Assembly (NCBI GenBank): GCA_964580075.1
Contig: CAZOJL010000004.1
Span: 262 to 64,261, forward strand
Direction: 5' to 3'
DNA from: an uncultured Akkermansia sp.
GTDB lineage: Bacteria > Verrucomicrobiota > Kiritimatiellia > RFP12 > JAAYNR01
Length of the DNA: 64,000 nucleotides
Below are positions 19,414 through 53,940 of this stretch, piece by piece. Made by a program: the position numbers and the translations under genes. The notes below the pieces were generated by a model. The model saw nothing but the letters and a program-made list of their open reading frames with translations. It did no database searches and was not told the DNA's origin. How positions within the stretch are numbered: position 1 is the first letter of the stretch; each line of letters starts with the position of its first letter.

Positions 19414-22400
19414 ATGAAACGATTCGACATTGCGCCCTTTGCCCTGCCCAACGCGTTGGCGGGGGAGTTGAAGTTCGAGGAACTGAGGGACATCGAGACC
19501 GTCGCGGTGGATTTCGACGGCCCGGCGCCCAAGACGGTCAGCTTGCAGTACCTGCGCAAGCACTGGCCCGGCGTGCGTATCGAGCGCACGATGGAGATGG
19601 ACCAGCAGCGGCCCATGTCCGTCGGTTGGTTCCGGATGGATGATCCCTTCACGCCGGAATGGGTGCCGGCCGCGACCCGCGTTGTCCGGCGCGGAAAGAA
19701 GACGTTGGTCTTCTCGTTCCATCCGCTAACTGCGGAACTCCCGGACGTGACGGACTACGCGGTGGGCTTCCGGCGCACCCTCGGCGTACGCGTGGCGGAG
19801 AGCGCGGTGGGCGTCAAGGCGATACGGGTCTTTACCCGGTCGCAGCCGGCGCGCAGCAAACTGCGCGTCGAACTGCACGCCGGCCGGAGGACCGCCGCGA
19901 AGACCATCGGGGTGAGCGGCTACAACGCGGTTGTGCGCGCGGTGCAGGCCGGTGGCGGCACGCGCGTGACGGCCACAGACATCCATGTCGGCGCGGGCCG
20001 GCAGGCGGCCTTTGAGATTGAACTCGATCACATGGAGCCTGTGCACCGTTACGCCAACGACGGCGCACACGTCCGCTTCGATCTGGGCCGGGACGCCTTC
20101 ACGATCGCGTTGGCCGCGCTGGACGCGCAAGGTCCGATCTGGTTTGCCGACGCCGGCATCTTCATTGTCCGCGCCGCGAATCCGGAGACCTTTGCCGCCT
20201 ACCGGGAGCGCATCCAAGGGTGCCGCACGGTGGCGACCGAGATTGCGGCGCTGCCGGAACAGTCCCTCGCCGGCGCCATGAACGGTCAACCGCGGCCGCA
20301 CCCCATTGCCTATGTCTGCGGCTGCCGGCACGCCCGCCAGAAATTCTGGATCGAGCCCTGTGGCGATATCGAGCTGACAGGATGTCTGGTGAAGCGCAAC
20401 TCGAACTCGTGGTTGGGGACACCCGAGGGGCGCGATACGCCCAAGTGGAAGAACGCAGGAATGGCACGCATCTTCTTCGGTCTCGACCTGTGGGCGGCGG
20501 AAGCCCGGCATAACGCCCCCTGGCCGGTCATGGCCTACAACCAGCAATTCCGGCGCGATGCCGTGCGTGTCCGGCAAAAGTGCTTCGCTGTGCCGCTGAC
20601 GCAATCCATTCTGGCCGGCGAACCGGCGCCGGATGCGACAATGGTGGCACTGGTTCGCTTCTCCTTCGAGAATACGGGTGACGCTCCCGCCGTGGCAGAG
20701 TTGCCGGTGTCCTACAGCCATCTCTCACATCGTGTCCATAACCGCCGGGTCCTGCGCGACCAGAACTGGACGCACGTAACCGACTCGTTGGTTCCGAAAT
20801 GCGAGCGGGAGAAACTGGTTGTGGACGGCGACCTCATCCGCGGTTCCTATCAGAATGAACTGGTCCCGCGCCTCATGTTCCAGACGGACATGACGGCCGA
20901 GACGACCGCTGCGGGTGTGCACTTCCGCAAGAAGCTTCAACCCGGCGAAACCTGCGAGTTTCTGGCGCGCATTCCGTTTGTCGCTGTCGAGTCGGAGGAT
21001 GAACTCGCGGCGCTGCGCGGGTTGGATTTCGGCCGGTGCTATGACGAGATGGCGCGCTACTGGCGCGAGGAAAGCCGGAAGAGCGCCCAGATCCAGACGC
21101 CGGATCCCCATCTGAACGCGGTTTACACCGGGCATCTGCCGATGGTGGTGATGAGCGACTTCGGCCACACGGACCATCCGTATATCGTCAGCACGTCGGT
21201 GGGCGCCTGTACTTACGGCAACTTCACCAACGAGTCGGTGATGATCGTCGAGGAACTCCAGCAGCGCGGCATGACGGACGACGTTCGGCGGCGCCTGGCT
21301 GCCTGGGTGAAGTATCAGGGAACGGTCGGCTTGAACGGCCGGTTCACGGACCACGACGGGGTGTTCTACGGTAGCGGCGGTTGGGAGTCGGGGCAGAGCT
21401 ACAACCAGCATCACGGCTGGGCTTTGTGGGCGCTGGCGCGGCATTTCCTGCACACGGGCGATCGCGCGTGGTTCGCCAGCGTGGCAGACAGTGTCATCAA
21501 AGGCGCCGAATGGATCGCGCGCCAACGTCGCGAGACGCTCAAGACCTTGCCGCACTCGCGCGGCTGGGAGCGCGGTTTTCTGCCGGCCGGCGCGCTCGAG
21601 GACGTGGAGGACTTCTTTTACTGGTTGAGCACCAACTGCCTGACCTGGCGCGGGCTGGACAGTGCGGCCGCCGCGCTGGAAAAATTCGGCCATGCCGAGG
21701 CCGCGCGCTACCGCAAGGAGGCAAACGCCTATGGCCGCGATCTGCGCCGCGGTTACGAGGAGGCGCGCCGGCATAGTCCGCTCGTCCGCCTGCGCGATGG
21801 ACGCTGGGTTCCGCACTATCCGTCCCGCCTCTATTGCCGCGGTCGAGACTACGGCTGGATTCGCGAAACGCTGGAAGGCTCGGTCTATCTGCTGATCTCA
21901 GGACTCTATTCGCCCGAGAGCAAACAGGGCGGCTGGATTCTGGACGACTACCAGGATACCCGGTACATGAGCCCGCCCTACAGTTATCCGATCCACGATC
22001 CTCAGACCGAATGGTTCGACTGCGGCGGCATCTGCCCGCAGCCGGCGCTGCTGGCCGGCCTGCTGCCGCACCTCGACCGCGACGAGATCGAAGTGTACCT
22101 GTGGATGTTCTTCAATGTCTGGGCCGCGTGCTATCGCCCCGAAGTGCAGGCCTTTGTGGAGCATCCCCAGCCGGTGCTGGGCTTTGGCAACTGCGCGCCA
22201 TTCAAGACCAGCGACCAGTCCAACGCCATGAAGTGGCTGGCCTATCTGTTCGTTTACGAGCGGGATGGACTGCTGCACCTTGGCCGGGCGATACCGCGCG
22301 CCTGGTTTGCGCAGGAACAGGCTTTTAGTGCCACGCGGCTGAGCACACCGGCCGGCATCGTTTCGGTCGAGTACCGTCCGCAGTTGGCGGCCGAGAAGAT

Positions 22401-22590
22401 TGAGACCGAGGTCGAACTGGAACTCCGCGCGAAGCCCGAGCGGTTGCTGCTGCGCTTCCGGCATCCGGAGAAGAAGCCGATCCGGTCGGTTACGATCAAC
22501 GGGCGCGCGTCGCAGGCTTTTGATGCCACGAACGGCGATGTGGAATTACCGACTGTTAGTGGCAAGGTGTGCGTGACGGTCAGCTATTGA
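19414..22590 (+). CDS. large hypothetical protein (about 1058 aa), possibly an (alpha/alpha)6-barrel glycoside hydrolase
   Basis: Start at MKRFDIAPF (the upstream part of the listed ORF lies in minisatellite DNA). No signal peptide. Coding-like composition throughout; GSGGWESGQSYNQHHGWALWALARHF is reminiscent of six-hairpin glycosidases. I do not recognise the family. Confidence 0.45.
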   Translation: MKRFDIAPFALPNALAGELKFEELRDIETVAVDFDGPAPKTVSLQYLRKHWPGVRIERTMEMDQQRPMSVGWFRMDDPFTPEWVPAATRVVRRGKKTLVFSFHPLTAELPDVTDYAVGFRRTLGVRVAESAVGVKAIRVFTRSQPARSKLRVELHAGRRTAAKTIGVSGYNAVVRAVQAGGGTRVTATDIHVGAGRQAAFEIELDHMEPVHRYANDGAHVRFDLGRDAFTIALAALDAQGPIWFADAGIFIVRAANPETFAAYRERIQGCRTVATEIAALPEQSLAGAMNGQPRPHPIAYVCGCRHARQKFWIEPCGDIELTGCLVKRNSNSWLGTPEGRDTPKWKNAGMARIFFGLDLWAAEARHNAPWPVMAYNQQFRRDAVRVRQKCFAVPLTQSILAGEPAPDATMVALVRFSFENTGDAPAVAELPVSYSHLSHRVHNRRVLRDQNWTHVTDSLVPKCEREKLVVDGDLIRGSYQNELVPRLMFQTDMTAETTAAGVHFRKKLQPGETCEFLARIPFVAVESEDELAALRGLDFGRCYDEMARYWREESRKSAQIQTPDPHLNAVYTGHLPMVVMSDFGHTDHPYIVSTSVGACTYGNFTNESVMIVEELQQRGMTDDVRRRLAAWVKYQGTVGLNGRFTDHDGVFYGSGGWESGQSYNQHHGWALWALARHFLHTGDRAWFASVADSVIKGAEWIARQRRETLKTLPHSRGWERGFLPAGALEDVEDFFYWLSTNCLTWRGLDSAAAALEKFGHAEAARYRKEANAYGRDLRRGYEEARRHSPLVRLRDGRWVPHYPSRLYCRGRDYGWIRETLEGSVYLLISGLYSPESKQGGWILDDYQDTRYMSPPYSYPIHDPQTEWFDCGGICPQPALLAGLLPHLDRDEIEVYLWMFFNVWAACYRPEVQAFVEHPQPVLGFGNCAPFKTSDQSNAMKWLAYLFVYERDGLLHLGRAIPRAWFAQEQAFSATRLSTPAGIVSVEYRPQLAAEKIETEVELELRAKPERLLLRFRHPEKKPIRSVTINGRASQAFDATNGDVELPTVSGKVCVTVSY

Positions 22591-28248: not shown

Positions 28249-29928
28249 ATGATGAAACTTGTCATAGCAGCAGACCATGGCGGCCTTTCCCTGAAATCCG
28301 CTCTTCTCGCCCGTTTGTCGGCCCGCTCGATGAATGCCGAAGATCTCGGTTCGTGCTGTGCGGGTCCTGTCGATTATCCCGATATGGCCGTCCGGCTTGC
28401 CGAGCGGATTGTCGAGGGCCAGGCCGACCGCGGTGTGCTGATCTGCACCACCGGCATCGGCATGTCGATCGCGGCGAACCGCTTCAGCGGCGTCCGCGCC
28501 GCCCTGTGTGCCACAGCGGAGCAGGCGTGCTGCGCGCGCAGCCACAACGACGCGAATGTGCTGGTGCTCAACGGGCAGATGGACGCAGACACGTGTGCCG
28601 CCGTTCTGGACGCCTGGCTCGACACCCCGTTCTCCGGGGAGGTTCGTCATGTCCGCCGCATCGCCAAGCTCGAACGGTCCGGTCGGCTTGCCGAGGTTTC
28701 ACATTTGGCCCAGGCCGATCCCGAAATCCACGCAGCGGTGGTCGCACAGATCGAGCAGGAAGATTCGACCATCAACCTGATCGCCTCCGAAAACACCGTC
28801 AGCCGCGCCGTGCGCGAAGCGACGGGGAGCGTGCTCACCAACAAATACGCCGAAGGGTACCCCGCCAAGCGCTGGTACGGCGGATGCGGCCCCGTCGATC
28901 AAGCCGAGACGCTGGCCATCGAGCGGGCCAAGGCCCTGTTCGGCGCCGATCACGCCAATGTCCAGCCCCACTGCGGGAGTTCCGCCAACATGGCGGTCTA
29001 TTTCTCCGTGTTGAACCCCGGCGACACGATCCTCGCCATGTCGCTCGACCAGGGCGGACACCTCACGCACGGCAGTCCCGTAAATTTCTCGGGCAGACTC
29101 TTCAACATCGCCGCCTACACCGTCTCGCCCGAAACCGAGGTGCTGGACTACGATATCATCGCCGAACAGGCGCGCGTCTGCCGTCCGAAACTGATCGTCG
29201 CGGGCGCCAGCGCCTATCCGCGCATCCTCGATTTCGCCCGGTTCCGCGCCATTGCGGACGCCTGTGGCGCCCTGCTGATGGTGGATATGGCGCATATCGC
29301 CGGTCTGGTCGCGGGCGGCGCCCATCCGTCGCCCGTGCCGTTTTCCGATTTTGTCACCACCACCACCCACAAGACCCTCCGCGGTCCACGCAGCGGCATG
29401 GTCCTCTGCAAGGCCGCCTATGCCCACGTGATCGACAAGACCGTTTTTCCCGGTCTTCAGGGCGGGCCGCTGCAGAGCATCACGGCCGCCAAGGCGGTCT
29501 GCTTCGCCGAGGCGATGCGCCCCGAATTCAAAGCCTACGCCGGACAGGTGATCGCCAACGCGCGCGCCCTCGCCGCCACCCTCGCCGCGCGCGGCTTCCG
29601 CCTCGTCTCGGGCGGCACCGACAACCACCTGATGCTGGTCAACGTCGCGGCCCGCGGCCTCACCGGAAAAGCGGCGTCCGCCGCGCTCGATGCCGCCGGG
29701 ATCATCTGCAATAAGAATGCGATCCCGTTCGACACCCAGAGCCCCTTCGTCACCTCGGGCGTCCGCATCGGCACCGCCGCCGTCACCACACGCGGCATGG
29801 GCGAGGCCGAGATGACGCGCATCGGCGGCTGGATCGCCGATATTCTCTCGGACATCGACAATACCGACGTGCAGGCGCGCGTCCGGGGCGAAGTCGCCGA
29901 CTGCGCCAGCCGGTTTTCCGTACCGTGA
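28249..29928 (+). CDS. glyA: in-frame fusion of ribose-5-phosphate isomerase B (RpiB/LacAB, N-terminal about 150 aa) and serine hydroxymethyltransferase
   Basis: N-terminus [18 protein letters not shown]...[17 protein letters not shown]...[12 protein letters not shown]...[10 protein letters not shown] is RpiB. It then continues without a stop or frame change into [53 protein letters not shown]...HKTLRGPR (SHMT with the PLP lysine region). Confidence 0.8.
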
Positions 29929-34933: not shown

Positions 34934-36017
34934 TCATTGCGCGACCTCCTCATACATCGCGACAATGTTGGCCGATGGCGAGTCGGGCTGCATGACGTGC
35001 GAGGGAGCCAGGATGTAGCCGCCGGGGCCGAGGGTGTCGATGCGATCTCTGACCTCGGCGCGCACCTCGTCCGGGGTGCCCGTCACAAGCGTCTGCTGGA
35101 TGTCGATGGCCCCGTGGAAACAGAGTTGGCGTCCGAATTCGCGCTTGAGGCGCGCCGGATCCATGCCGGCCGCAGAGGTCTGAATGGGGTTGAGCACCTG
35201 CACGCCGGCCTCGATCAGCGCCGGAATGATGCCGAAAATTGCGCCGCATGAATGGTGATAGCCCATCGCCCCGTGCGCCCGCGCCAGGTCGTAATGCCGG
35301 CTTCAGGCTCGGCATGAACAGGTGGCGTATCGGTTCCGGTCCCAGCAGAAGGCCGTTCTGGGTTCCGTAGTCATCGCCGCAGCCAACCGCATCGACCGCG
35401 CCAGGATAGCGGCGAAAGATCTCGCGCAGGCAGCCGAGGGTGAACGCCTCGACCTTCGCCACCGCCGCCTCCATCAGTTCCGGTGCGAGCACGATGTTCG
35501 TCAACGCCCGCTCGAGGCCGAACATCTGCCATGTGATGCCGAAGGGGCCGATGCAGGACATGTCGAGGATGACCACGTCCTGCTGCCGCTTCCACGCGGC
35601 CCAGTCGCGATCCACCGGCGTCTCGGGCCAGACCATCTCCTCCACGCGCGGCCAGTCATACGCTTCGACATCGGCCACGGTCTCCGCCTCGGTGAGCGGG
35701 GCCTGCGTGATCTCAAAGTAGTGGGCGTCTCCGGCGGTGACCCGCTCGCGGCGCACGCCCCAGTAGTCGATCTGGACTGTAGGATCGGACCGGGCATTGT
35801 GGGCCTTCCGCTCGGGCATGGACGGCCCGCGCCCGACCGCCGCCCACAACGATTCGAAGCGGCTTGCGCCGAAGCGCTGCCACAGCTTCTCTTCCGGCCG
35901 CGCGCCGAGATAGGCACGCAGCTTCGCTTCCGTCTCCGGCAGGGCCTCGTACGTGTACGGGATGCGGTCGGGCACTTCGCCGCGCATCGCGGCCAGCATT
36001 TCATCGCGGCGGGGCAT
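34934..36017 (-). pseudogene. uroporphyrinogen-decarboxylase (URO-D/MtaA-like) family protein, frameshifted near 35270-35295
   Basis: The N-terminal roughly 240 aa (MPRRDEMLAAMRGEVPDRIPYTYEA...GCGDDYGTQNGLLLGPEPIRHLFMPSLKP) are in one frame. The C-terminal part (YDLARAHGAMGYHHSCGAIFGIIPALIEAGVQVLNPIQ...GGYILAPSHVMQPDSPSANIVAMYEE) is in another, with a stop between them in the downstream frame. RBS AGGAG 7 nt before the ATG at 36017. Confidence 0.55.
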
Positions 36018-36039
36018 GCGGAATCTCCTTGCGATCATG

Positions 36040-37539
36040 CTATTGGCCGGCGGGCGTCCATTCGCCATCCGCGGGTTGATTGGTTTCGCTCCCCTTCGCT
36101 TCGGCGAGAAACCCGTCAAACGTCCACGTCCAATAGAGGAAGCGCTGCCGCCCGACCGGATCATCGGCCAGTTCGACCCGCGCCTTGTCCCGCAACGCCA
36201 TCATCTGGACCACCACATCGGGAGGCCAGATCTTCTGGTACATGGCCGGCGGGATGCGCCCTTGATCCGCCAAGCCGCCCTTCACGGTGTCCCAGCGGGC
36301 GCACTGCAGCCGGATCAGTTCCCGCACGGTGCCGCCGGCCTGGCCGTAGAGCCGACGGCACATCGCGTCGAGCACGGCGTCCACGTCCAGTTCCGGATTC
36401 CAGAGCGCCTTCATCCAGACATAGAGCGTCGGCGCGGAAGTCGTCCAGTCGGCCATGATGCCGCCGTTGATGAACGTCCCGGCGAGCACCGTGCGGTTCG
36501 TCCGGTAGAATTCGCACACGAGGTGTGGGTACTGCACGGGGCCATACGTCCAGCCGCTGCCGCGGTCCCAGGCGTCCTCACACCCCTGGAGGAGATAGGC
36601 CAGCGTGTTCGTGGAGCTGTAACAGAGCATGCTCAGATGCGGTGTTCCGTCAGCCTTCTGCTGAAACATGTCGTGCAGCTCGGGATGCTTGGACCACTTG
36701 CTCTCCCACTGCTTCCAGAGTTTCTGCGGCTCGTGAACCTTCACCTGGTAGGGCCAACTGTTGCCCTCGCGCACCAGCGGCAAATAGTCAGCCATGTCCA
36801 CCTTCGCCACGTCATCGGGAATGGCGCCCGGCGCGAAGGGGAGAGGCTCCTTGTCGAACCAGCGTGCGTTCTGCGGCAGCGGCCATCCGGCTTTCGGATG
36901 GAACAGGCGCTGGCGGAAAACGGGCTGATCCTGATAGGCAACCGGGGGGATGACGAGCGAGGCGTGGGTGACGAGGGTTCTCCCGCCGAGGTCCGTCGGC
37001 CAGTACCAGCGCACGCCGACAAAGCGCTCCAGGAAGTCCGCCACGGCCCAGGCCGTGCCTTCGCTGGCCCAGTAAGCCCAGCGATTGCTCCCTGTCGGCA
37101 GCGCCTGCGTGCTCCCCACGAGATAGACGCGGTTGGGGGCGGTCTTAACAACAAACCCCTCGAACGGCAATGTCGCCGCGTCGATGCCGGCCTGGCGCGT
37201 CTCCTCGCAATCGCCAATCACGATGGCGGGCTGGTCCACCGCCGGCGGCTCGAACACGCGTTCGAACGTGGCGCCGGTGCTCAGGCGAACGACCTCCAGC
37301 AGCTCGTCCACCAAACGCGTGAGCGTCGCGCTGGGTTTGGGGTCGGCAACGAAGATCACGGCCCGTGCCGTGCCGTTGCGCGCCAGCTCGACCGGCGCAT
37401 GCACTGGCGCCGTGAGCCACGTCACGGGCGTCAGGTCGCGCGGTTTGAGTTCGTCGCCGGCCAGCGTCGGCAGCACCAGCGCGGCCGAAAAGGCCACGAG
37501 TTGCACCATCTGCAGTCTGTATAGTCTTGTTTTTCTCAT
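36040..37539 (-). CDS. secreted DUF4838-family protein (putative glycoside-hydrolase-like)
   Basis: 499 aa with a signal peptide. It is strongly paralogous to the N-terminal 600 aa of ORF 6046..10242. Its start overlaps the stop of the upstream glycine-rich gene (ccATGa). Confidence 0.6.
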   Translation of the reverse strand: MRKTRLYRLQMVQLVAFSAALVLPTLAGDELKPRDLTPVTWLTAPVHAPVELARNGTARAVIFVADPKPSATLTRLVDELLEVVRLSTGATFERVFEPPAVDQPAIVIGDCEETRQAGIDAATLPFEGFVVKTAPNRVYLVGSTQALPTGSNRWAYWASEGTAWAVADFLERFVGVRWYWPTDLGGRTLVTHASLVIPPVAYQDQPVFRQRLFHPKAGWPLPQNARWFDKEPLPFAPGAIPDDVAKVDMADYLPLVREGNSWPYQVKVHEPQKLWKQWESKWSKHPELHDMFQQKADGTPHLSMLCYSSTNTLAYLLQGCEDAWDRGSGWTYGPVQYPHLVCEFYRTNRTVLAGTFINGGIMADWTTSAPTLYVWMKALWNPELDVDAVLDAMCRRLYGQAGGTVRELIRLQCARWDTVKGGLADQGRIPPAMYQKIWPPDVVVQMMALRDKARVELADDPVGRQRFLYWTWTFDGFLAEAKGSETNQPADGEWTPAGQ

Positions 37540-38324
37540 GGCCTTCCTCTGTTTGCGCCGGGACCATCATACCCGCCGCCGCCGCCGCCGCCGCCATAAT
37601 AGTTGCCCGAACTTGTGGGCCATTCTACACCGTCGCCGCCGTAACCACCATTGCTGCCGTCATCGAGAGAGGCGTGACCATCCTCGCCCGGCGCGCTCGC
37701 ACCGCCACCGCCAGCGCCGGAGTCATGGGTACTGTCAGTGTAATTGCAGCCGCCACCGGCATACCCCTGACCTGGCGTTCCTGCCCCACCATCATCAGTG
37801 AGATACCGACAACCGGCGCCACCCCCGGAGCCGCCGTCTTTGGCCGGGTTAACGAGATTTTGGGCTGCGGTTGTTGCGCTCGAGCCGCCACCGCCGCCGA
37901 TTGCCGGACCAACCAGCCCGACGATCGCGCTGTTCTCTCCATTCTCACCCGCAAGAAGCCCGGATAGCACTCCGCTGCCGCCGTTGCCTACTGTGACGGT
38001 GTAAGACTGCTTCGCGACCTGCACCGCTCCCGTCAGGACGCCACCCGCGCCACCACCGCCGCCGATGTTGTAGCCGCCGCCACCACCGCCGGCCACGATG
38101 AGGTGTTCGATTTTGCCCGGTGACGTGACATCGAGCGTGCCGCCCGGGTACGTGAAGGTGTGATACACCATGCCATTGGTGATCGTCGTGGTGCCGCCCG
38201 TGGCATGCACCGCTTCTGCCTGCGGCGCCAGCACGCCAAGCGTCACCGCAGCCAGCGCCAGGCCGACTGCCCCGCGCGCGAACCCGCGCGCTGTCTTGAT
38301 TGTGCATAGGCTTATTATTCTCAT
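37536..38324 (-). CDS. secreted glycine-rich protein (paralog of 16445..)
   Basis: Start at VMRIISL (GAGGAGG RBS). Signal peptide ...APQAEA. The ...GKIEHLIVAGGGGGGYNIGGGGGAGGVLTG...YTVTVGNGG architecture matches 16445..17077. Glycine-rich C-terminus. Confidence 0.55.
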   Translation of the reverse strand: MRIISLCTIKTARGFARGAVGLALAAVTLGVLAPQAEAVHATGGTTTITNGMVYHTFTYPGGTLDVTSPGKIEHLIVAGGGGGGYNIGGGGGAGGVLTGAVQVAKQSYTVTVGNGGSGVLSGLLAGENGENSAIVGLVGPAIGGGGGSSATTAAQNLVNPAKDGGSGGGAGCRYLTDDGGAGTPGQGYAGGGCNYTDSTHDSGAGGGGASAPGEDGHASLDDGSNGGYGGDGVEWPTSSGNYYGGGGGGGGYDGPGANRGRP

Positions 38325-38465
38325 GACCCTCCTCTTTTCTGTTGGTGACCGACCGACCGACCCGCCGAGGCCGATCACTGTTCACTGATTACTGTTCACT
38401 GATCTACACCCCGCCACGCTCACCTTTATTGCGCGTCGTTTTCGTCATCTCTTCTGGCTCAGAAA

Positions 38466-39473
38466 CTAGGCAGGCCGAACCGTATCGCCCTCCACCAGCG
38501 GCGCGGTCAGCATCAGGCGCCGCACCGGTGATGTGGGATAATCCAATCGCCAGTACAGCATCCGCATCGCCTCGACGCCGATGTTTTCCAGCGGCATGGC
38601 GGCGGTCATCAACTGGAAGTCTCGGCCGATGGCCGTTGTCGTGCCGTCAAATCCGGTCACACTGATGTCATCCGGAACCCGGAACCCGCGGGACCGCAGG
38701 TGCGCAATGCCCGTGAGCGCCATGTCGTCGTTGTAGAATGCAATCACGGTAAAGCGCCGGCGCAGATTCGCCGGCGTGGTGCCGGGCGGGATCAACGTAT
38801 CCAGTTGGGACACCACCGAATCCCGGGAGGCGTGTTTCGCCATGTGAATGTTGGCAGGCTCCAGCCGGCCGCCCCCTTGCTGCAGGCCGAACGTGAGTCC
38901 CATCAACCGCTCTTGCGCCAGGGAACTCGTCGGCCCCACAAAGGCCACGCGCCGATGCCCCATGCGGACGAGGTACTCGCCGATCGCTCTCGAGGCGTCG
39001 GCGTCGTTGACGGTGATCCAGTCGCTGACCTCGTCGATGGGGCAGAACACCGACACATGCGGTATCGGGCAGGTGCGCGGCGGACGACTGGCCGGATCGC
39101 CTCCGAACACGTGCACCACTCCGTCCACCTGCCGCCGGTTCACGAGCAGCGGCCACTGTCCGCGCCACTTTTCGGGAAAATTCATCACCTCGCAGCCAAG
39201 CTCGCGACCCCCGTTCAGAATGCCTTGCAGCAAACGGGTCTGAAAATCCGACCGATCCGCCGGATGCGTAACGGAGACCATCGCACACACGACCTGCGTG
39301 CGTGCGTTTTTTCCCCGTTGCCGGAATTCCGGCACGAGGAAACCGGCCTCCTGCGCCAGCGCCACAATTTGCGTTCGTAAGCGCGGGCTCACGCCGTCCT
39401 CACCTCGCAGAACGCGCGAGACGGTCATCTGCGAAATCCCGAGCTTCGCCGCCAAATCTTTCTGTGACCCAAT
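38466..39473 (-). CDS. LacI-family transcriptional regulator
   Basis: N-terminal HTH (MIGSQKDLAAKLGISQMTVSRVLRG) plus a periplasmic-binding-protein-like sugar-binding domain. GGAG RBS. Confidence 0.8.
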   Translation of the reverse strand: MGSQKDLAAKLGISQMTVSRVLRGEDGVSPRLRTQIVALAQEAGFLVPEFRQRGKNARTQVVCAMVSVTHPADRSDFQTRLLQGILNGGRELGCEVMNFPEKWRGQWPLLVNRRQVDGVVHVFGGDPASRPPRTCPIPHVSVFCPIDEVSDWITVNDADASRAIGEYLVRMGHRRVAFVGPTSSLAQERLMGLTFGLQQGGGRLEPANIHMAKHASRDSVVSQLDTLIPPGTTPANLRRRFTVIAFYNDDMALTGIAHLRSRGFRVPDDISVTGFDGTTTAIGRDFQLMTAAMPLENIGVEAMRMLYWRLDYPTSPVRRLMLTAPLVEGDTVRPA

Positions 39474-39621
39474 CATGAGCACTCCGCCCGTCGAAACACC
39501 CGCCCAATCGTACACATCGGAGTAACTATATCATACTTGTAGAATACGCGCAAGTGGGGAAATAAAAATGCAAGAAACACCTGCATTTTAACCATTTAAT
39601 TGGCAAAATGCCTTATGTTTA

Positions 39622-46837: not shown

Positions 46838-47986
46838 TTACTTCGCCCATGAAAATGCGCGCGCCGCCTCGATGACCCGATCGTACGCATCCGGCTCGAT
46901 ATTGGAAGGCAGCGGGCTTCCGGTGCAAAGAATGAAGGGCGCCCCCGGCCCGGACTGCCGAATTTGCCGCTCGACTTCCCGTTTGATTGCATCCGGCTGA
47001 TTCCGCATCAGCAGCAATTCGGAATCGAGATTTCCGAAAAGACAGCGGTTTGGACCAAAGACGTGCCGGACTTTCTGAACCGTGAGGTCTATGCCTTTCC
47101 GAGGCTGTTCAAAAGCAAAAGCGTCCACGGGAACAGTGGCCTGCTGTTTCAGCACCGGCAGAATATCCCCTTCGTTCCAGAGGATTGTTTTAAGACCGGC
47201 CGCCCGGGCTGCGGCCACAATCGACACCTGACACGGCAACGCGAAGCGTTCGAACAGTTCCGGCGAGATGATGTCGCATGAAGCCCATCCATCAGCGATG
47301 AACACCGCCTCTGCCCCGGCTTCCTTCAGTTGCCGCATCCGGGTGTTGTGATCGGCACCCATCAGGGCACAGACATACGTGAACAACGCGGGGTTTTCCA
47401 TCATCATGAGCATGGATTCTTCGAAGCCGAGAGCATAGCAACTATAGACATACGCCGGCGAATAGTGCGGAAGTATCAGCGTACGATCGCCGGCCTCGCG
47501 GATCAGCCTGGTCAGACCGGACAAATAGGCATCCCCCCAGCCGGCAAAGGTTGGGATCAACCGGTCGGTTCGAAAGGTTGGGATCAGCCGGTCGGCATCC
47601 GCAAAGGTTTCGACACGGCCAACCGATCCGCACCCCTTCGCCCCGGTCTGCAGTTCGTACAAAGAAAGGCTGTCTTTGGTTAACCCGAAAACCATGCCGG
47701 TGTTGTCATTTCTGATGACCCATTTCGTCGCGTCTTCATCCAGCAATGTCGGTTCCAGCGGGCCCTCGATCGCTCCGGTATAGAAGATCACGTCCACCGC
47801 ATGCCGATCCAGCAAAGCCCGATGCGCCTTGTGCCACGTATCACTCCCGCCGACCGCGAGCTGCCAAGGTTCAATACCCGCCACTTTCCAGGTGTAATCG
47901 AATTCCCAGTTGAACAACGCGACCGGTACCCGATCCGTCGCGACACCCGATAGCGCCTGCAGCGCAATCTGTTTTCCATTTTCCAT
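46838..47986 (-). CDS. uroporphyrinogen-decarboxylase (URO-D/MtaA-like) family protein, second paralog, intact
   Basis: 382 aa; C-terminal GAPFILCTGSPLPSNIEPDAYDRVIEAAR typical of the URO-D/methyltransferase family. It contains an in-frame 27-bp tandem duplication (47546-47599; DRLIPTF-RT-DRLIPTF). Confidence 0.6.
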   Translation of the reverse strand: MENGKQIALQALSGVATDRVPVALFNWEFDYTWKVAGIEPWQLAVGGSDTWHKAHRALLDRHAVDVIFYTGAIEGPLEPTLLDEDATKWVIRNDNTGMVFGLTKDSLSLYELQTGAKGCGSVGRVETFADADRLIPTFRTDRLIPTFAGWGDAYLSGLTRLIREAGDRTLILPHYSPAYVYSCYALGFEESMLMMMENPALFTYVCALMGADHNTRMRQLKEAGAEAVFIADGWASCDIISPELFERFALPCQVSIVAAARAAGLKTILWNEGDILPVLKQQATVPVDAFAFEQPRKGIDLTVQKVRHVFGPNRCLFGNLDSELLLMRNQPDAIKREVERQIRQSGPGAPFILCTGSPLPSNIEPDAYDRVIEAARAFSWAK

Positions 47987-48280
47987 ATCAGTACAACGGG
48001 ACCTTCTGCGGAACCGTCTCCTTTTGTGAATTTAGTGTGGCAGAAACGGGAATCCGTGTCAATTTTCCAAGCATTTCTAATTTTGTCCTGATCATCGCGG
48101 TACTGGTGTTGCTGTTCGTCCGGCCCAAAGCCGCTGGATGATGTGTTTCTGTGTTGATCTTGACGTTTCCACCGGCTTCTGTCACGCTTCACACCATGAA
48201 TTCGCTATGCAAGACCGGTCCGGCATGATTACTGGCTCTGTGGGCCGGTGTCGGACGAAAAGCGATTTCTTATCACTTAT

Positions 48281-50632
48281 ATGAAAAAACACTCATTTGA
48301 CAACGATTGGCTTTTCGACTTAGGCGATGTGGGTCAGGCCGCGAAAGCCTACGAGGACGCGTCCTGGCGCAAGCTGGATCTGCCGCACGACTGGAGCATC
48401 GAACTGCCGCGCAGCAAGGACAACCCCAGCGGGGCGTCAGGCGGGTACGTGAGCGAAGGTGTGGGTTGGTATCGGAAGCATTTTCACGCGCCGCGCGAGT
48501 GGAGCGGTCAATGCGTGATGATCGAGCTCGAGGGTGTGTACCGCGATGCGGAGGTCTGGCTGAACGGCTATGCGCTCGGCGTGCACCCCTACGGCTACAC
48601 CACCTTCGCGCTGGACCTGACACCGTACCTGGAACTTGATGCAGAGAACGTCCTGGCGGTGCGCGTGAGCAACGCGCCGCACGGGCACACGCGCTGGTAT
48701 TCCGGATCAGGCATCTATCGGCACGTCTGGCTGCTGACCGCGCCTCGCGTTCATGTGGCACACCGGGGCCTGGTGGTCACGACGCCTGAAGTCGCCGTCA
48801 AGGCGGCGGTCGTAGAGGTGCGCACGACGGTGGAGAACCGGACGGACGCGGACCGTGCGGTGGTGGTGCGATGGCGGGCCATCGGACCGTCGGGGAAGAC
48901 GATAGCCAAGGGCGAGAGTCGTGGAAAGGTCCAGGCGGCGGCGACCACGGAATTCCTGCAACGGCTGGCCGTGCGTGCGCCCACGCTCTGGTCGCCCGAT
49001 ACGCCCCAACTCTACCGGATGGAGACGGAGGTACGTGACGGCCGGAACCGGCTCGATGGTGATTCGACGACCTTCGGCATCCGCTCGATCGCCTTCAATG
49101 CCGAGCAGGGGTTCGTGCTGAACGGGCAGCCGCTGAAAATGCGCGGTGGTTGCGTGCACCACGATTGCGGGCCTCTCGGCGCCGTATCGATCGACCGGGC
49201 CGAGGAGCGCAAGGTCGAACTGCTCAAGGCCAGCGGCTTCAACGCCGTGCGTTGCGCGCACAATCCGCCGGCCTCCGCCTTCCTCGACGCCTGTGATCGA
49301 CTGGGTATGCTCGTGATGGACGAGGTCTTCGACGGTTGGCGCATGAACAAAGAGCGGAATTTCCACGACTACCACCGCTTCTTCGACATGTGGTGGCAGG
49401 AAGATCTGGACAGCATGGTCCTGCGCGACCGTAATCACCCGTCGATCGTGGTCTGGAGCATCGGTAACGAGGTGGAGGAACGCAGCCTGCCGGAAGGCGC
49501 CGCCATTGCGGCCAAGCTCGCCGCCCGTGTGCGTGAGCTGGACCCGACGCGGCCGGTCACAGCCGGGATCTGTGCCATCTGGGGCGACCCCGCCTGGAAT
49601 AAAACGGATGCGCTGTTCGCGCATCTCGATGTCTGCGGCTACAACTACCTCGTCGATGTGTACCGCCCGGATCATCAGCGGTTCCCGAAGCGTGTCATCC
49701 TGTCGACGGAATCCTTTCCGTCGCCGCAGTACGTCTTCGATTACTGGAAGGCGGTCGAGGATTTGCCGTGGGTGGCCGGTGATTTCGTCTGGACGGCGCT
49801 CGACTACCTCGGCGAGGCGGGAATCGGACACGACTTTCTGGAAGGCGATCAGTTGCCCTTGAAAATCGGCTGGCCCTACACGGTCGCCAACTGCGGCGAT
49901 ATCGACATCTGCGGCGGCAAGCGCCCGCAGTCCTACTACCGGGACGTGCTCTGGAAACGCATGGAGACGCCCTATATCGGCGTGCGTGCGCCGGTGGCCG
50001 AGGGCCGCAAGGCCGTGGCCTCCATGTGGGGCTGGGTTGACTTGCAGACAAGCTGGAACTGGCCGGGGTGCGAGGGGAAGCCGTTGGCGGTGGAGGTCTA
50101 CTTCGACTGCGACGAGATCGAGCTGTTCCTCAACGGCCGGTCGATCGGCAAGGCGCCGGCCGGTCTGGAGGCGAAGCACCGGGCGCTCTTCAACGTGGCG
50201 TTCGAACCCGGCGAACTGAAGGCCGTGGCCAAACGCGCCGGCAAACCGGTGGCGAAGGCTGCGCTGACCACGGCAGGTGCTCCCCACGCCATACGGCTGA
50301 AGGCGGACCGGTCCCGCATCCGGGCCGATCGCAACGACCTGGCGTACATCACGGTTGAGCTTTGCGACAGCAACGGGCACCTCGTGCCTGACTCCGCCGA
50401 TACGATCCGGTTCGCGCTCGATGGGCCTGGCGAGATCGTCGCCGTGGCCAATGCCGATCCTTACAACACGGCGCCGTTCCGCGGTCGGGAGCACCGCCTG
50501 TGGCGGGGGCGCGGCCTGGTCGTCCTGCGTCCGAAGGGCCCGGTCGGGGACATGGTGCTGCATGCCATTGCGGATGGGGTGCAGCCCGGCAAGGTTGCAG
50601 TGTCCACGTCCGACACGAGGGCATCCCTTTGA
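48281..50632 (+). CDS. glycoside hydrolase family 2 (beta-glucuronidase/beta-galactosidase-like)
   Basis: DLPHDWSIE in the sugar-binding domain; NAVRCAHNPP and WSIGNEV in the TIM barrel. Start at MKKHSF. No signal peptide. Confidence 0.75.
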   Translation: MKKHSFDNDWLFDLGDVGQAAKAYEDASWRKLDLPHDWSIELPRSKDNPSGASGGYVSEGVGWYRKHFHAPREWSGQCVMIELEGVYRDAEVWLNGYALGVHPYGYTTFALDLTPYLELDAENVLAVRVSNAPHGHTRWYSGSGIYRHVWLLTAPRVHVAHRGLVVTTPEVAVKAAVVEVRTTVENRTDADRAVVVRWRAIGPSGKTIAKGESRGKVQAAATTEFLQRLAVRAPTLWSPDTPQLYRMETEVRDGRNRLDGDSTTFGIRSIAFNAEQGFVLNGQPLKMRGGCVHHDCGPLGAVSIDRAEERKVELLKASGFNAVRCAHNPPASAFLDACDRLGMLVMDEVFDGWRMNKERNFHDYHRFFDMWWQEDLDSMVLRDRNHPSIVVWSIGNEVEERSLPEGAAIAAKLAARVRELDPTRPVTAGICAIWGDPAWNKTDALFAHLDVCGYNYLVDVYRPDHQRFPKRVILSTESFPSPQYVFDYWKAVEDLPWVAGDFVWTALDYLGEAGIGHDFLEGDQLPLKIGWPYTVANCGDIDICGGKRPQSYYRDVLWKRMETPYIGVRAPVAEGRKAVASMWGWVDLQTSWNWPGCEGKPLAVEVYFDCDEIELFLNGRSIGKAPAGLEAKHRALFNVAFEPGELKAVAKRAGKPVAKAALTTAGAPHAIRLKADRSRIRADRNDLAYITVELCDSNGHLVPDSADTIRFALDGPGEIVAVANADPYNTAPFRGREHRLWRGRGLVVLRPKGPVGDMVLHAIADGVQPGKVAVSTSDTRASL

Positions 50633-50674: not shown

Positions 50675-51595
50675 TCAGCTTCCTTTCTTGACGGGCACAT
50701 GCGTGGCGGCGGCGACCGCCGCCTCCCATGCAGCGACAGTGACGGCCTCGGGGAAGGCGGAGTCGTCCATGGGAGCGGGCTTGCCGATGCGCTCGCTCTT
50801 CGACTGGCCGAGCGGATGGTACGGCATGAGGTTGACCTCGAGAATATGGTGAAGTCGGTTCGCCAAGGCTGCGATCCCGGCAAAATGGTCATCCCTGGCG
50901 TTGAGCCCGGGGATGATCGGGCAGCGCAAGATGGTCTTCGCCCCGAGCTGGTCGAGGCGGATCAGGTTGTCGACGATGACCTCCCGCAGCGCACCGGTAT
51001 ACTCCTGATGACGGGCGGGATCGGTCTCTTTGTAATCGTAGAGGAAGAGATCGACCAGGGGCATGATCTGTTCCAGCCGGTCGAATGGGGCAAAGCCGGA
51101 GGTCTCGATGCAGGTGTGGAGTCTGCGCCGCTTGGCCTCCTGGAGCAAGGCAAGGGTGAATTCGAATTGGAAGAGCGGTTCACCGCCCGAGATGGTCATG
51201 CCGCCGCCCGAGGTCTCATAAAATGGCTTGTCCTTCTCGACCTCCGCGATCACTTCCGCGACGGTCATCTCCCGTCCGATGAGTTCGAGGGCCTTGGCGT
51301 AGCACTTCTCGGTGCAGACGCCGCAGCGCTGGCAAAGCTCCCGGCGGAAGGTGCGGTTCCCGTCCTCGCCCATGACGTGTCCGCCATGCGGACAGGCCTG
51401 GAAGCAGTGTCCGCAGCCGATGCACTTGGAGGGGATGAGCGAGATTTCGGCGGCTCTTTCCTGCGACTCCGGGTTGTGACACCAGAGGCAACGCAGGGGG
51501 CACCCCTTCAGGAAGACGGTCGTCCGTATGCCGGGTCCGTCGTGGATAGAGAACTTCTGGATGTCAAAGACGATGCCGTTCATGTCTATAATCAT
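50675..51595 (-). CDS. glycyl-radical enzyme activating enzyme (radical SAM)
   Basis: CPLRCLWCHNPES (CxxxCxxC) plus ferredoxin-like CIGCGHCFQACP ... CQRCGVCTEKC clusters. 306 aa. Its start overlaps the stop of the glycyl-radical enzyme gene by 4 bp. Confidence 0.8.
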   Translation of the reverse strand: MIIDMNGIVFDIQKFSIHDGPGIRTTVFLKGCPLRCLWCHNPESQERAAEISLIPSKCIGCGHCFQACPHGGHVMGEDGNRTFRRELCQRCGVCTEKCYAKALELIGREMTVAEVIAEVEKDKPFYETSGGGMTISGGEPLFQFEFTLALLQEAKRRRLHTCIETSGFAPFDRLEQIMPLVDLFLYDYKETDPARHQEYTGALREVIVDNLIRLDQLGAKTILRCPIIPGLNARDDHFAGIAALANRLHHILEVNLMPYHPLGQSKSERIGKPAPMDDSAFPEAVTVAAWEAAVAAATHVPVKKGS

Positions 51596-53940
51596 GACGT
51601 GTGCTTGGTGCGGGCGATGATGTGCTCCTGAAGATCGGGGGGAACCAGTTTGAACTTCTGGGAGAAGCCGGCGACACGCACCGGGATGTCCCCGTAGTGT
51701 TCCGGATCTCTTTGCGCCTGGCGGAGTTTATCGACCGTGACGATGTTGAACTGAAGCTGGCCGATGTCCATCGCCAGGGCCGCACGTATGAGCGTGGTCA
51801 AGCGTTCGACACCCGCCTCCCCCTCGACCACGGCCGGATCGAGCTCGATGATCGCCGCCGACGCCCCCGCCGCCCGGTCGTGTGGCAGGCGCGCGAGAGA
51901 CTTGAGCATGGCGGTGGCGCCGCGCTCGTCGCGCCCCTGTTGTGCCGACAACGAATAGGCAATGGGTTCTCCGGCCTTGCGACCGTCCGGGGTGGCGCCC
52001 AGGCATTTTCCGAAATGCAGGTTGCAGAGAAAGGAGAAGAGATGAACGAAGTAGCGGCCGCCGAGGGGGCTGCGCAGGGTGTCCATCAGGTCGATGAAAT
52101 GGTCGTCGACGCGTTTCGCGAGCAGGTCCACCTCCTCGGTGTCGTTGCCGTACTTCGGCGCGTCCCGCAGCAGTCTCTGCCGCAGCTCTTCCTTACCGGC
52201 GAAATCGGTTCGCAAGGCGTCCAGCAACTCAGCGGTGCCGAGCTGCTTCTCGTCGTAGACCAGCTTCTTGATCGCCATCAGGGAATCGGCGGTGTTGGCC
52301 GTGCCGAGGAGGCAGATGGAGTGGTAGTTGTAGACGGCGCCTCCGTCGGTAATGTCGCGCCCGCGGGCGATGCAATCGTCGGTCATGACCGACCAGCAGG
52401 GGAGGGGGCCGCGCTCACGCTGAAGCAGCTCGCCGCGGTTACAGTGATAGGCCATGCGCCTGGCGAAGAATTCGACCTGCGCCTGGTAGGCGTCGAAGAG
52501 GCTTTCGAACGTCGGATGGCTGCCGAGCGCGCCGGTCTTCGGCCCCAGTTGGACGCCGGTCCGCGGATCGGCGCCGTCGAACAAGGCCAGCTCGAGACAC
52601 TTGGCGGCGTTGAACCAGCCCGACACGGCGTGCGGGTTGGCCTTGCCGGGGATGGTCAACTCGATGCAGCCAATGGGGGCGTAGTTCCGTGCGTCCTCGA
52701 CGGCAATGCCACGGTCGGTCAAGGCCTTGATGAAGCAGGCGTCATTAAAGAGGAAGGGGATGCCGCCGCCCTCGACGATCAGTTCGGCGGCGAGACGGAG
52801 GAAGCGGGCCGGCGAGTTTTTGCTGACGCGGATGGAGACGTCGCGGATGAACCCCACGTTCCGGGTGGCCTCAAGGATAAGGTAACTCAAGTCGTTGACG
52901 GCGCAGTTGCCGTTCCGGTCCACGCCGCCCAGCGTGATGGCCTGCACGTCGTAATCGAGATAGAGCTTGCAGGCCAGTTCCTCCATCAGTTCGAGCGCCG
53001 CGGCCCGCGTGAGCGAGCCGTCCGCGAGACCGGCCTGGCAGTAGGGGAAGAGGATCTGGTCGAGGCGACCGATCGAGTTGGCGTTGATGTGGTCCTCGCC
53101 GCAGGTGAGAATGTGCGCGAACCACAGCGCCTGGACCGCCTCATGGAAGTTGCGGGCGCCGCGGGCCGGCACCTGCGCGCAGACTTCGGCCATCCGCTCC
53201 AGCCGTGCCTTGTCTTTCGCATCGGCCGTAGCGGCCGCCCGCTCCGCCGCCAGTTCCGCATAGCGCTTGCCAAGGAGGATGCCCGCCTCGCAGACGCTCC
53301 GCGCCCCACGCCAGAAGTTCTCTTTCCGCGGAAAATCGGGGTCAATCAGGTCGCCGGACGCCAGAGCCGCATCAATCTCCTCCAGGATTCCGGCGAAACC
53401 GATGCGTATGACTTTGGCAATGTCGCGAACGCTATGGTTTTCAACCCACCCAATGGACCAAAAGACGTCCATGCCTGTGGCTCCACCCCAGCCACCCTTG
53501 CCGGACTCGCTGCCTGGCGCGGGGATCCCGACGTCTACCCGGAACGACCCCCTCGGCACTGCGGTGTCGGCGTCACTATTCCAAGCCCCGGCGCAGCGCC
53601 GGACCTTCTCCGCCTCCGCCGCGTCGATCCCGAACTCGGCAAAACGCACGGCGTACGCGGGGTTGTTTGAAGCGCCCAACCCGGTCTCCCAACTAACCGA
53701 TGGCCGCAGGTGCTCGCCGGCCAAGGTCCAGTGCGGGCCGATGTCGACGGGCGCCAGAACAACCAGTTCGCGCAAGAACGCCGCCCGCCGCTGGACGCGC
53801 GATTGCTCCGCCGCGAACGACCGCCACAGGGCCACATCACACAGCAGCGGATTGGCATTTCCCACGAAAGCGCCCTGCCGTGCCATGGCATCGGCCCGCA
53901 GGGTGGCGATGCGCGTTGAGAGATGATCGGATGCGATCAT
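51592..53940 (-). CDS. glycyl radical enzyme, eliminase/dehydratase class (C-x-E active-site motif)
   Basis: 782 aa. C-terminal glycyl-radical motif IPVRVAGFSQKF; thiyl-radical loop APIGCIELT (Cys-x-Glu, as in choline TMA-lyase, glycerol/propanediol dehydratase, HypD and IslA, and unlike the CC of pyruvate formate-lyase). Confidence 0.75.
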   Translation of the reverse strand: MIASDHLSTRIATLRADAMARQGAFVGNANPLLCDVALWRSFAAEQSRVQRRAAFLRELVVLAPVDIGPHWTLAGEHLRPSVSWETGLGASNNPAYAVRFAEFGIDAAEAEKVRRCAGAWNSDADTAVPRGSFRVDVGIPAPGSESGKGGWGGATGMDVFWSIGWVENHSVRDIAKVIRIGFAGILEEIDAALASGDLIDPDFPRKENFWRGARSVCEAGILLGKRYAELAAERAAATADAKDKARLERMAEVCAQVPARGARNFHEAVQALWFAHILTCGEDHINANSIGRLDQILFPYCQAGLADGSLTRAAALELMEELACKLYLDYDVQAITLGGVDRNGNCAVNDLSYLILEATRNVGFIRDVSIRVSKNSPARFLRLAAELIVEGGGIPFLFNDACFIKALTDRGIAVEDARNYAPIGCIELTIPGKANPHAVSGWFNAAKCLELALFDGADPRTGVQLGPKTGALGSHPTFESLFDAYQAQVEFFARRMAYHCNRGELLQRERGPLPCWSVMTDDCIARGRDITDGGAVYNYHSICLLGTANTADSLMAIKKLVYDEKQLGTAELLDALRTDFAGKEELRQRLLRDAPKYGNDTEEVDLLAKRVDDHFIDLMDTLRSPLGGRYFVHLFSFLCNLHFGKCLGATPDGRKAGEPIAYSLSAQQGRDERGATAMLKSLARLPHDRAAGASAAIIELDPAVVEGEAGVERLTTLIRAALAMDIGQLQFNIVTVDKLRQAQRDPEHYGDIPVRVAGFSQKFKLVPPDLQEHIIARTKHTS

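Follow-up and report, generated by a model that had tools for sequence, protein, structure and literature searches.

A UroD-superfamily gene in the probable remnant of a recently inactivated, LacI-linked operon for glycan utilisation in a Lentisphaerota bacterium

Among the UroD-superfamily proteins outside haem synthesis, MtaA-type methyltransferases have a His-Cys-Cys zinc site, one or both cysteines of which are replaced in the O-methyltransferases of the superfamily (PMC10418091). Corrinoid methyltransferases are usually co-located with their corrinoid protein and activase components (PMC10418091). Enzymes of the OdmB/VdmB type, the methyltransferases I of corrinoid O-demethylases, use aryl methyl ethers as substrates, and their genes are accompanied by those for a corrinoid protein, methyltransferase II and activase. 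The sole sugar demethylation found described is O2-dependent, catalyzed by the cytochrome P450 6-O-methyl-D-galactose demethylase of marine Bacteroidota (PMC6292453). DUF4838 is no longer a domain of unknown function, being the catalytic domain of GH163 and GH185 (PMC10570127), of which BT1035 (endo-beta-N-acetylglucosaminidase) and Sp_0475 (6-sulfo-beta-GlcNAcase) are respective examples. Literature searches for uroporphyrinogen decarboxylase together with polysaccharide utilisation, Kiritimatiellales, Planctomycetes or sulfatases, and for methylated sugars with corrinoid demethylation, gave no paper that links the UroD term to such contexts, and none that characterises the UroD1-like family described below. 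A sequence-only reading of the DNA analyzed here had put forward, as one hypothesis, that a DUF4838 gene and two UroD-superfamily genes belong to an anaerobic module for O-demethylation of sugars, and had named loss of the three-gene adjacency in relatives as evidence against it.

The window, the 64,000-nucleotide stretch of DNA that was analyzed, includes three adjoining, co-directional genes on the minus strand, which encode a Gly_rich_2 protein (37536..38324, 262 aa), a DUF4838 protein homologous to GH163/GH185-type glycosidases (36040..37539, 499 aa) and the UroD-superfamily protein UroD1 (34934..36017). The ATG of the first gene (38324) is preceded by a strong Shine-Dalgarno sequence, AAGAGGAGGG; the TGA of this gene shares bases with the start codon, ATG, of the DUF4838 gene (ccATGAg), and 22 nt with an AGGAG lie between the TAG of the latter (36042-36040) and the ATG of UroD1 (36017). 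The gene-family calls and the overlapping arrangement given by the sequence-only reading, including the short gap with its AGGAG, are borne out. The Gly_rich_2 product matches PF21722 over residues 87-276 (39.3 bits versus a gathering threshold of 24.3) and begins with a hydrophobic segment that is signal-like as judged by eye; apart from itself (P0241) it has no homolog over its full length, the closest other match having 48% identity over 38% of the query, and by this comparison the gene is a lineage-specific orphan. Upstream of the three genes and co-directional with them is a gene for a LacI-family transcriptional regulator (38466..39515, minus strand, with matches to PF00356 and PF13377), the likely regulator of the cassette; the order LacI-GlyRich-DUF4838-UroD is also seen in contig L003. 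The LacI/Gly-rich intergenic region, as read from the sequence, contains a tandem 14-bp direct repeat, two copies of TCAGTGAACAGT(A/G)A (38375..38402, minus strand), which might possibly be an operator. Near the LacI gene and in this intergenic region, a search for inverted repeats gave no candidate operator, and a promoter and terminator scan stayed at background level (0 promoters; 4 terminators versus 3.7 expected).

Two of the three genes are damaged. UroD1 is, as had been noted, frameshifted, and is a pseudogene by a +1 insertion: its frame breaks at approximately 35300, after codon 238, by an extra C in CTGAAG-C-CGGCATTAC. With one C removed, the gene encodes a predicted cytoplasmic protein of 360 aa that aligns end to end with full-length homologs at 50-84% identity, matches PF01208 over residues 147-359 only (77.4 bits, gathering threshold 23.9) and has the UroD/MtaA fold in an AlphaFold2 model (pLDDT 94.7). 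The DUF4838 gene has an in-frame internal deletion of 381 bp (127 codons) with a clean junction at approximately 36565-36567. Residues 321-443 of an 81%-identical, 634-aa ortholog (L009/L001) are absent from the window protein, which removes 123 of the 270 residues (46%) that the ortholog aligns to PF16126; the intact ortholog scores 96.2 bits over profile positions 61-322, and the incomplete domain of the window protein 28.3 bits (cut-off 26.6) over positions 273-322 of 325 only. The 499-aa product is probably inactive because the deletion falls within the catalytic domain. A protein bearing such a deletion could retain a binding role. PF16126 and a signal-like N-terminus (by eye) are common to the window gene and to BT1035 and Sp_0475, and its neighbours in the window include sulfatases, GH38, GH2 and NagA; the likeness is at the level of the Pfam domain, and unlike those enzymes the window copy has lost nearly half of its domain-aligned residues. 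An intact 1398-aa DUF4838 paralog in the same window (6046..10242) keeps the region that is missing from the shorter copy. A sulfatase gene, likewise glycan-related and within the window, contains an in-frame TAG, which fits with paralogs that are still decaying; its truncated fragment, looked up as an exact protein, had no match. The region is probably what remains of a LacI-linked operon for glycan utilisation that was inactivated recently in a Lentisphaerota bacterium.

Among about 150 related loci, in which open reading frames were called crudely, the adjacency of the Gly_rich_2, DUF4838 and UroD genes is not conserved in any relative. Only the DUF4838-UroD pairing recurs, once, in a Lentisphaerales MAG (84% identical); the order in this nearest relative is DUF4838, UroD (with a 17-nt overlap), sulfatase and beta-helix protein. 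In seven Victivallales MAGs, UroD1 orthologs occur in the order Regulator-GH2-(SGNH-like)-UroD, and other orthologs are found with GH116, GH28, sugar ABC transporters or a fru-type PTS operon. The UroD1 family comprises at least 2,656 clusters at 50% identity (E<=1e-30) and is spread through glycan and sugar-uptake loci of Lentisphaerota, Planctomycetota, Chloroflexota, Armatimonadota, Acidobacteriota and Clostridia, its hosts being mostly of anaerobic lineages. Outside Lentisphaerota its neighbourhoods are heterogeneous, with 156 Pfam families among 124 immediate neighbours.

UroD1 has the (beta/alpha)8 UroD fold in common with the MtaA/MtbA/MtsA methyltransferases (PDB 4AY7), which come first among its PDB matches both by profile (E 1e-10) and, with its model, by Foldseek (E 4e-13, TM 0.61-0.65). 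A PDB search with the single repaired UroD1 sequence gave no relevant match; MtaA and HemE were reached by the family profile only, among whose PDB matches OdmB, VdmB, MtvB and MtoB do not occur. H255 and C257 of UroD1 align exactly with the His-x-Cys zinc-ligand motif of these enzymes ('HICG' in MtaA), but identity is only 16%, the N-terminal half is not alignable, and H340 takes the place of the third ligand, the Cys of 'PGCG'. At this putative metal site, counted across 251 diverse members of the family, H255 is present in 100%, C257 in 91% (Asp in 8%) and H340 in 88% (Gln in 9%); the MtaA-type His-Cys-Cys coordination is not found in the family, of which the third ligand column is His or Gln instead of Cys. 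Compared by description, OdmB/VdmB-type enzymes and UroD1 belong to one superfamily, and the putative metal site of UroD1 may be akin to the partly Cys-replaced zinc site of O-methyltransferases (PMC10418091), but the described pattern is replacement of Cys by a carboxylate or a non-ligand, with which the His of UroD1 at the third position and the occasional Asp at C257 are compatible, not identical. The NCBIfam MtaA/CmuA models (TIGR01463, NF040654 and NF004889) give UroD1 36-49.8 bits versus cut-offs of 235-400, and TIGR01464 (HemE, equivalog cut-off 302.95 bits) does not match it at E<=0.01. By these scores UroD1 fits neither HemE nor MtaA, being closer to MtaA/CmuA and far under all cut-offs, in agreement with the earlier placement of the UroD-family proteins outside haem synthesis.

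The second UroD-superfamily gene of the window, UroD2 (46838..47986, minus strand, PF01208 90.7 bits versus a threshold of 23.9), is intact and, as had been noted, near GH2 and glycyl-radical enzyme genes: it is divergent to the GH2 gene (48248..50632), and after another 2.7 kb come the genes for the glycyl-radical enzyme and the activase of that enzyme. UroD2 is distant from UroD1 (18% identity) and is not part of the cassette. It scores 34.9 bits with TIGR01464 and 44-58 bits with the MtaA/CmuA models (cut-offs 235-400), and has Trp, Glu and Ser at the three zinc-ligand columns; the complete absence of zinc ligands tells against its proposed part as a methyltransferase partner in the module.

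The search for corrinoid-binding proteins was negative in the window, as the sequence-only reading had stated, and in the approximately 150 related loci. The window annotation contains no B12-binding family, and among the Pfam families listed for 361 genes close to members of the UroD1 and UroD2 families none is a corrinoid family. A regular expression for corrinoid proteins (DxHxxG...SxL...GG), which has limited sensitivity, was run with no positive control and would miss a non-canonical corrinoid protein, had 0 matches in 1.38 Mb (the window and the first 95 loci). At the Rfam gathering score, the window and the 8 nearest loci contain tRNAs only and no cobalamin riboswitch. Small neighbours of approximately 200-230 aa, considered as candidate corrinoid proteins, are instead RsgA, signal peptidase, small multidrug export protein and similar proteins.

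A broader form of the demethylation idea, unlikely on present evidence, is that the window copy is dead and that UroD1-type His-x-Cys...His proteins, perhaps together with the UroD2 type linked to MTTB-family genes, are oxygen-independent sugar demethylases in which zinc would activate a methyl ether or methylamino group, from which the methyl would be handed to a corrinoid supplied in trans or to free cobalamin, paralogs being paired with different glycosidases (GH2, GH36, GH163-like, GH116 and GH28). If the sequence-only reading were right, the P450 6-O-methyl-D-galactose demethylase would be an aerobic functional analogue (PMC6292453), although its O2-dependent chemistry differs, the fold of UroD1 is unrelated to it and there is no P450 gene at the cassette. 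The specific proposal that the cassette and UroD2 together form an anaerobic module, in which UroD/MtaA-like methyltransferases demethylate O-methylated sugars with the help of a corrinoid protein whose gene is elsewhere, is quite improbable. It gains from the closer scores of UroD1 to MtaA/CmuA than to HemE, from a ligand set (His-x-Cys with a third His) that recalls the cysteine replacements of O-methyltransferases (PMC10418091), and from the occurrence of UroD1 orthologs among enzymes that remove decorations (sulfatase, SGNH-like esterase), the recurrence of MTTB-family genes beside UroD2-family genes, the mostly anaerobic lineages of the hosts and the O2-dependence of the P450 route (PMC6292453). 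Against it, UroD1 is frameshifted and its partner glycosidase gutted in the window, UroD2 is without the His and both Cys ligands, and the three-gene adjacency is not conserved. Furthermore, the corrinoid protein and riboswitch searches were negative; in contrast to MtaA/MtbA/MtsA and OdmB/VdmB-type enzymes, no corrinoid protein, activase or methyltransferase II was found near UroD1, the context of which is glycan-related, not methylotrophic; and the compact fru-like PTS operon that encodes one member of its family leaves no space for partner proteins. A working O-demethylation module is unsupported, although O-demethylation by intact orthologs is conceivable: nothing in the window or in the related loci favours a B12-dependent sugar-demethylation module.

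It is very unlikely that the cassette is functional, its lesions being either tolerated or artefacts of assembly or sequencing. The extra C of UroD1, in a non-homopolymer context, is identical in six independent, separately assembled data sets (four SRA runs, one JGI and one ENA) whose contigs are 99.97-100% identical to the window, and the 499-aa DUF4838 product is identical in four of these six, i.e., all four that span the whole gene. Their recurrence in unchanged form across independent metagenome assemblies of the natural population shows that the insertion and the deletion are genuine and not errors. Relative to the orthologs, DUF4838 has a dN/dS of 0.20, and UroD1, versus the 84%-identical ortholog, one of 0.16, or 0.11 for the part downstream of its frameshift, with dS of approximately 0.6 for both genes; therefore, both genes were under purifying selection for most of the divergence, and these ratios of 0.11–0.20 suggest that inactivation is recent. 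Low dN/dS could alternatively mean that the genes still function, for example a split UroD by fragment complementation; the ratio is low even beyond the frameshift, and the C-terminal piece of UroD1 opens with its own ATG at 35266. Against tolerated lesions are the extent of the deletion, which takes 46% of the stretch that the DUF4838 ortholog aligns to the domain model, and the in-frame TAG in the sulfatase, a third damaged glycan gene.

That the UroD-family genes encode true uroporphyrinogen decarboxylases (HemE) for haem synthesis is refuted by residue and score tests, although the fold, the Pfam URO-D match (PF01208) and one histidine are common to UroD1 and HemE. Of the substrate-binding residues of human UROD (Arg37, Arg41, Asp86, Tyr164, Ser219 and His339), UroD1 keeps only the last (H340); Tyr164 is replaced by Ala and Ser219 by the invariant D216, no more than 67% of the family have the Asp86-like D84, and the N-terminal RxPxWxMRQAGR region, including MRQAGR, is absent. 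The Pfam match of UroD1 is limited to the C-terminal half, the TIGR01464 score is nil for UroD1 and far below 302.95 bits for UroD2, and the genes lie in a context of glycan catabolism, not among haem genes. The label 'uroporphyrinogen decarboxylase' that members of the UroD1 family bear in source databases is wrong as regards HemE function. Programmed +1 ribosomal frameshifting that would still yield full-length UroD1 is extremely improbable, having nothing more than the intact downstream frame in its favour: AAG-CCG-G has neither a slippery motif nor a stop-codon-stalled one, the 0-frame continues for approximately 116 codons, and among the full-length homologs listed none needs a frameshift.

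With the region read as the remnant of a glycan-utilisation operon, we infer the biochemical role of the UroD-like enzyme solely from gene context and residue conservation. In intact relatives, an exported GH20-like DUF4838 glycosidase would trim a complex or sulfated glycan, and a tightly coupled, cytoplasmic UroD-superfamily TIM-barrel enzyme with the conserved His-x-Cys...His putative metal site would process the imported sugar product, most likely without a dedicated corrinoid protein; the best guess for its reaction is that a sugar substituent is removed or rearranged with the help of a metal. As for the glycine-rich gene, it would be a lineage-specific addition. For the window itself the result is mainly corrective, in that the cassette appears to be a decaying operon and not a working pathway. 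The wider value lies in the UroD-like family, which is very large, has a putative metal site with a fully conserved H255 and is found in glycan and sugar-uptake loci; its reaction, once solved, would fill a gap that recurs in models of how polysaccharides are degraded anaerobically.

The cassette (34934-38324, minus strand of the window) follows a LacI-family regulator (38466..39515, minus), the first gene of the series, from which 141 nt separate the glycine-rich gene, whose real start is the ATG at 38324 (minus; preceded by the Shine-Dalgarno sequence AAGAGGAGGG). The encoded protein (262 aa; PF21722, Gly_rich_2, 39.3 bits) has a hydrophobic, signal-like N-terminus and is without ortholog, its best non-self match covering 38% of the query at 48% identity. 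The stop codon (TGA) of the glycine-rich gene shares bases with the ATG of the DUF4838 gene (36040..37539, minus) as ccATGAg, and 22 nt including AGGAG lie between the TAG of the latter and the ATG at 36017 of a UroD-superfamily gene (UroD1, minus; frame change at about 35300; 77.4 bits to PF01208). The gene families, the co-directional overlapping order, the frameshift and an intact UroD paralog (UroD2, 46838..47986, minus) are all present as the sequence-only reading described. A tandem 14-bp direct repeat (TCAGTGAACAGT(A/G)A, twice, 38375..38402), directly 5' of the glycine-rich Shine-Dalgarno sequence and ATG, may be a regulator binding site.

Both lesions in the cassette are genuine. Deleting one C from CTGAAG-C-CGGCATTAC, outside any homopolymer, restores a 360-aa UroD1 protein that can be aligned over its whole length to hundreds of full-length homologs. 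Six data sets (four SRA runs, a JGI metagenome and an ENA assembly) record the frameshifted 355-aa product (P0003); their contigs match the window at 99.97-100% identity, all six have the extra C, and the same 499-aa DUF4838 product is called in all four contigs that cover the whole DUF4838 gene. The nearest relative, an uncultured Lentisphaerales MAG (GCA_964417715.1, loci L001 and L009), has a DUF4838 protein of 634 aa (81% identical), of which residues 2-320 align with window residues 1-326 and residues 444-621 with 322-499, so that 381 bp of ortholog DNA (L001 3100-3480) are missing at a clean, in-frame junction (about 36565-36567) with a few bases of microhomology. Coverage of PF16126 is reduced from profile positions 61-322 (96.2 bits) in the ortholog to 273-322 (28.3 bits, scarcely over the 26.6-bit cut-off) in the window copy, which has therefore lost about 46% of the ortholog's aligned stretch. 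A second window DUF4838 protein (6046..10242, 1398 aa) keeps the deleted segment, and the event is therefore a deletion in the window, not an insertion in the relative. The product of this intact paralog (minus) combines an FGE-sulfatase-like domain with a complete DUF4838 domain, the latter sharing 45% identity with the L009 ortholog.

Comparison with the GCA_964417715.1 orthologs (Nei-Gojobori method) put dN/dS at 0.16 in the UroD1 gene (0.11 in the part 3' of the frameshift) and at 0.20 in the DUF4838 gene, with dS of about 0.6. Such values indicate purifying selection on both genes over nearly all of their divergence, and their inactivation is probably recent. The third damaged glycan-related gene of the window, a sulfatase gene (61534..63276, plus), is interrupted by an in-frame TAG at 62398-62400; its N-terminal part matches PF00884 positions 6-139, and its C-terminal part positions 173-300 plus SGSH_C. 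This split gene suggests that further glycan-gene paralogs are decaying in the same genome.

The function of DUF4838 is no longer obscure: it is the GH20-like TIM-barrel catalytic domain of GH163 and GH185, which include the endo-beta-N-acetylglucosaminidase BT1035 (GH163), active on complex N-glycans, and the 6-sulfo-beta-GlcNAcase Sp_0475 (GH185) (PMC10570127). Matching functions in the window are a GH38 alpha-mannosidase, a PfkB kinase, a GH28-like protein, NagA, two GH2 enzymes and sulfatase genes. The window also encodes a ribose-5-phosphate isomerase B (PF02502, 5-141) fused to serine hydroxymethyltransferase (PF00464, 153-529) in one 559-aa ORF (28249..29928, plus), and a glycyl-radical enzyme with its activase (50675..53940, minus), whose top-scoring NCBIfam models are of the HypD and sulfopropanediol-dehydratase types, every score lying far under the equivalog cut-off.

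UroD1 belongs to a very large family (1,815 proteins at E<=1e-5 among 8,000 scored candidates; 2,656 clusters of 50% identity at E<=1e-30 in a representative library). The AlphaFold2 model (pLDDT 94.7, pTM 0.91) matches MtaA (4AY7; E 4e-13, TM 0.61-0.65, 16% identity) and, almost as well, HemE structures, MetE being more distant. NCBIfam scores, nearer to MtaA/CmuA (36-50 bits, far under the cut-offs of 235-400 bits) than to HemE (no match), and residue columns exclude HemE and an MtaA-type thiol methyltransferase; His339 is the only HemE substrate-binding residue kept. In the profile alignment to 4AY7, HHSCG of the family aligns with HICG of MtaA, and APSH with PGCG of MtaA and GHG of HemE. 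Among 251 diverse members, H255, D216, G258, Q279 and G302 are invariant, C257 is conserved in 91% (Asp in 8%) and H340 in 88% (Gln in 9%). UroD-superfamily S-methyltransferases have a His-Cys-Cys zinc site, of which one or both Cys ligands are replaced in O-methyltransferases (PMC10418091); the His-Cys-His set of UroD1 would suit a putative metal site of a harder, oxygen-binding kind.

The surroundings of the UroD1 family were surveyed in 80 genome loci. In the 84% relative, DUF4838 and UroD genes (17-nt overlap) precede a sulfatase and a beta-helix/F5-F8 protein, and none of the other loci has a DUF4838 neighbor; the three-gene adjacency is not conserved in relatives, an outcome that the sequence-only reading had itself named as refuting its hypothesis. 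Seven Victivallales MAGs have the order regulator-GH2-(SGNH-like)-UroD, other loci adjoin GH116, GH28 or PGM, a MalK-type sugar ABC ATPase lies within 10 kb in 15 loci, and Armatimonadota copies are surrounded by housekeeping genes. The commonest Pfam families among 243 neighbors at ±1/±2 are ABC sugar-transport components, GH2, GH42, AP_endonuc_2, GntR and GFO/IDH/MocA. A Lachnospiraceae MAG (L062 6910-11578) has consecutive genes for PfkB, PTS-EIIA, PTS-EIIBC, a UroD-like protein and DeoR in a fru-like PTS operon, an arrangement suggesting that the enzyme acts on a phosphorylated sugar and needs no partner proteins.

UroD2 is 18% identical to UroD1, has Trp/Glu/Ser at the three zinc-ligand columns, and represents a family in which Trp, Tyr, Asp and Glu abound at the conserved positions. 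Members of this family are found next to GH36 (twice in one locus) and GH2, as tandem arrays of up to three URO-D genes, and together with AP_endonuc_2 and GFO oxidoreductases. One such array (L095 8939-12142, on a contig shared with L119) lies 3' of LacI and a DUF6785/DUF6784 protein in a locus with GH36, GH2 and GH20; two of its three genes have His and Cys at the zinc-ligand columns, the middle one being of the Trp-Glu type. An MTTB-family gene (PF06253) is near a UroD2-family gene in four loci (L089 6456-9149, L092 8001-14048, L131 2692-9028 and L142 5571-8098), its stop overlapping the UroD2-family start by 4 nt in L142; L089 and L131 have a common set of AP_endonuc_2, DegT aminotransferase, MTTB and URO-D. 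Directly 3' of the UroD2-family gene in L092 (9136-12546) is a homolog (E 4e-94) of a 1090-aa window ORF (19318..22590, plus) that has no Pfam or NCBIfam match.

These MTTB neighbors are the sole hint of methyl-transfer chemistry; MTTB is absent from the window, and none of the four loci has a B12-binding protein with the MTTB and UroD2-family genes. No corrinoid family appears in the Pfam lists of the 243 UroD1-family neighbors, the canonical corrinoid-binding motif (regular expression) has no match in 1.38 Mb (the window plus 95 loci), and no cobalamin riboswitch (Rfam) was found in the window or the eight closest loci. Small neighboring proteins considered as corrinoid proteins were, on checking, unrelated. 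The earlier proposal of a working corrinoid-dependent module for O-demethylation of methylated sugars finds no positive support, with UroD1 frameshifted, DUF4838 partly deleted and neither corrinoid protein nor riboswitch found in the DNA scanned; such chemistry in intact UroD1 orthologs is unlikely. The locus is best read as a recently inactivated remnant of a LacI-linked glycan-utilization operon, in which an exported GH163/GH185-type glycosidase would formerly have been paired with a UroD-superfamily enzyme, cytoplasmic and probably metal-dependent, whose substrate was a sugar product. The cassette itself is ordinary; what merits more study is the uncharacterized UroD-like families within carbohydrate loci, whose members carry the label "uroporphyrinogen decarboxylase" in source databases.
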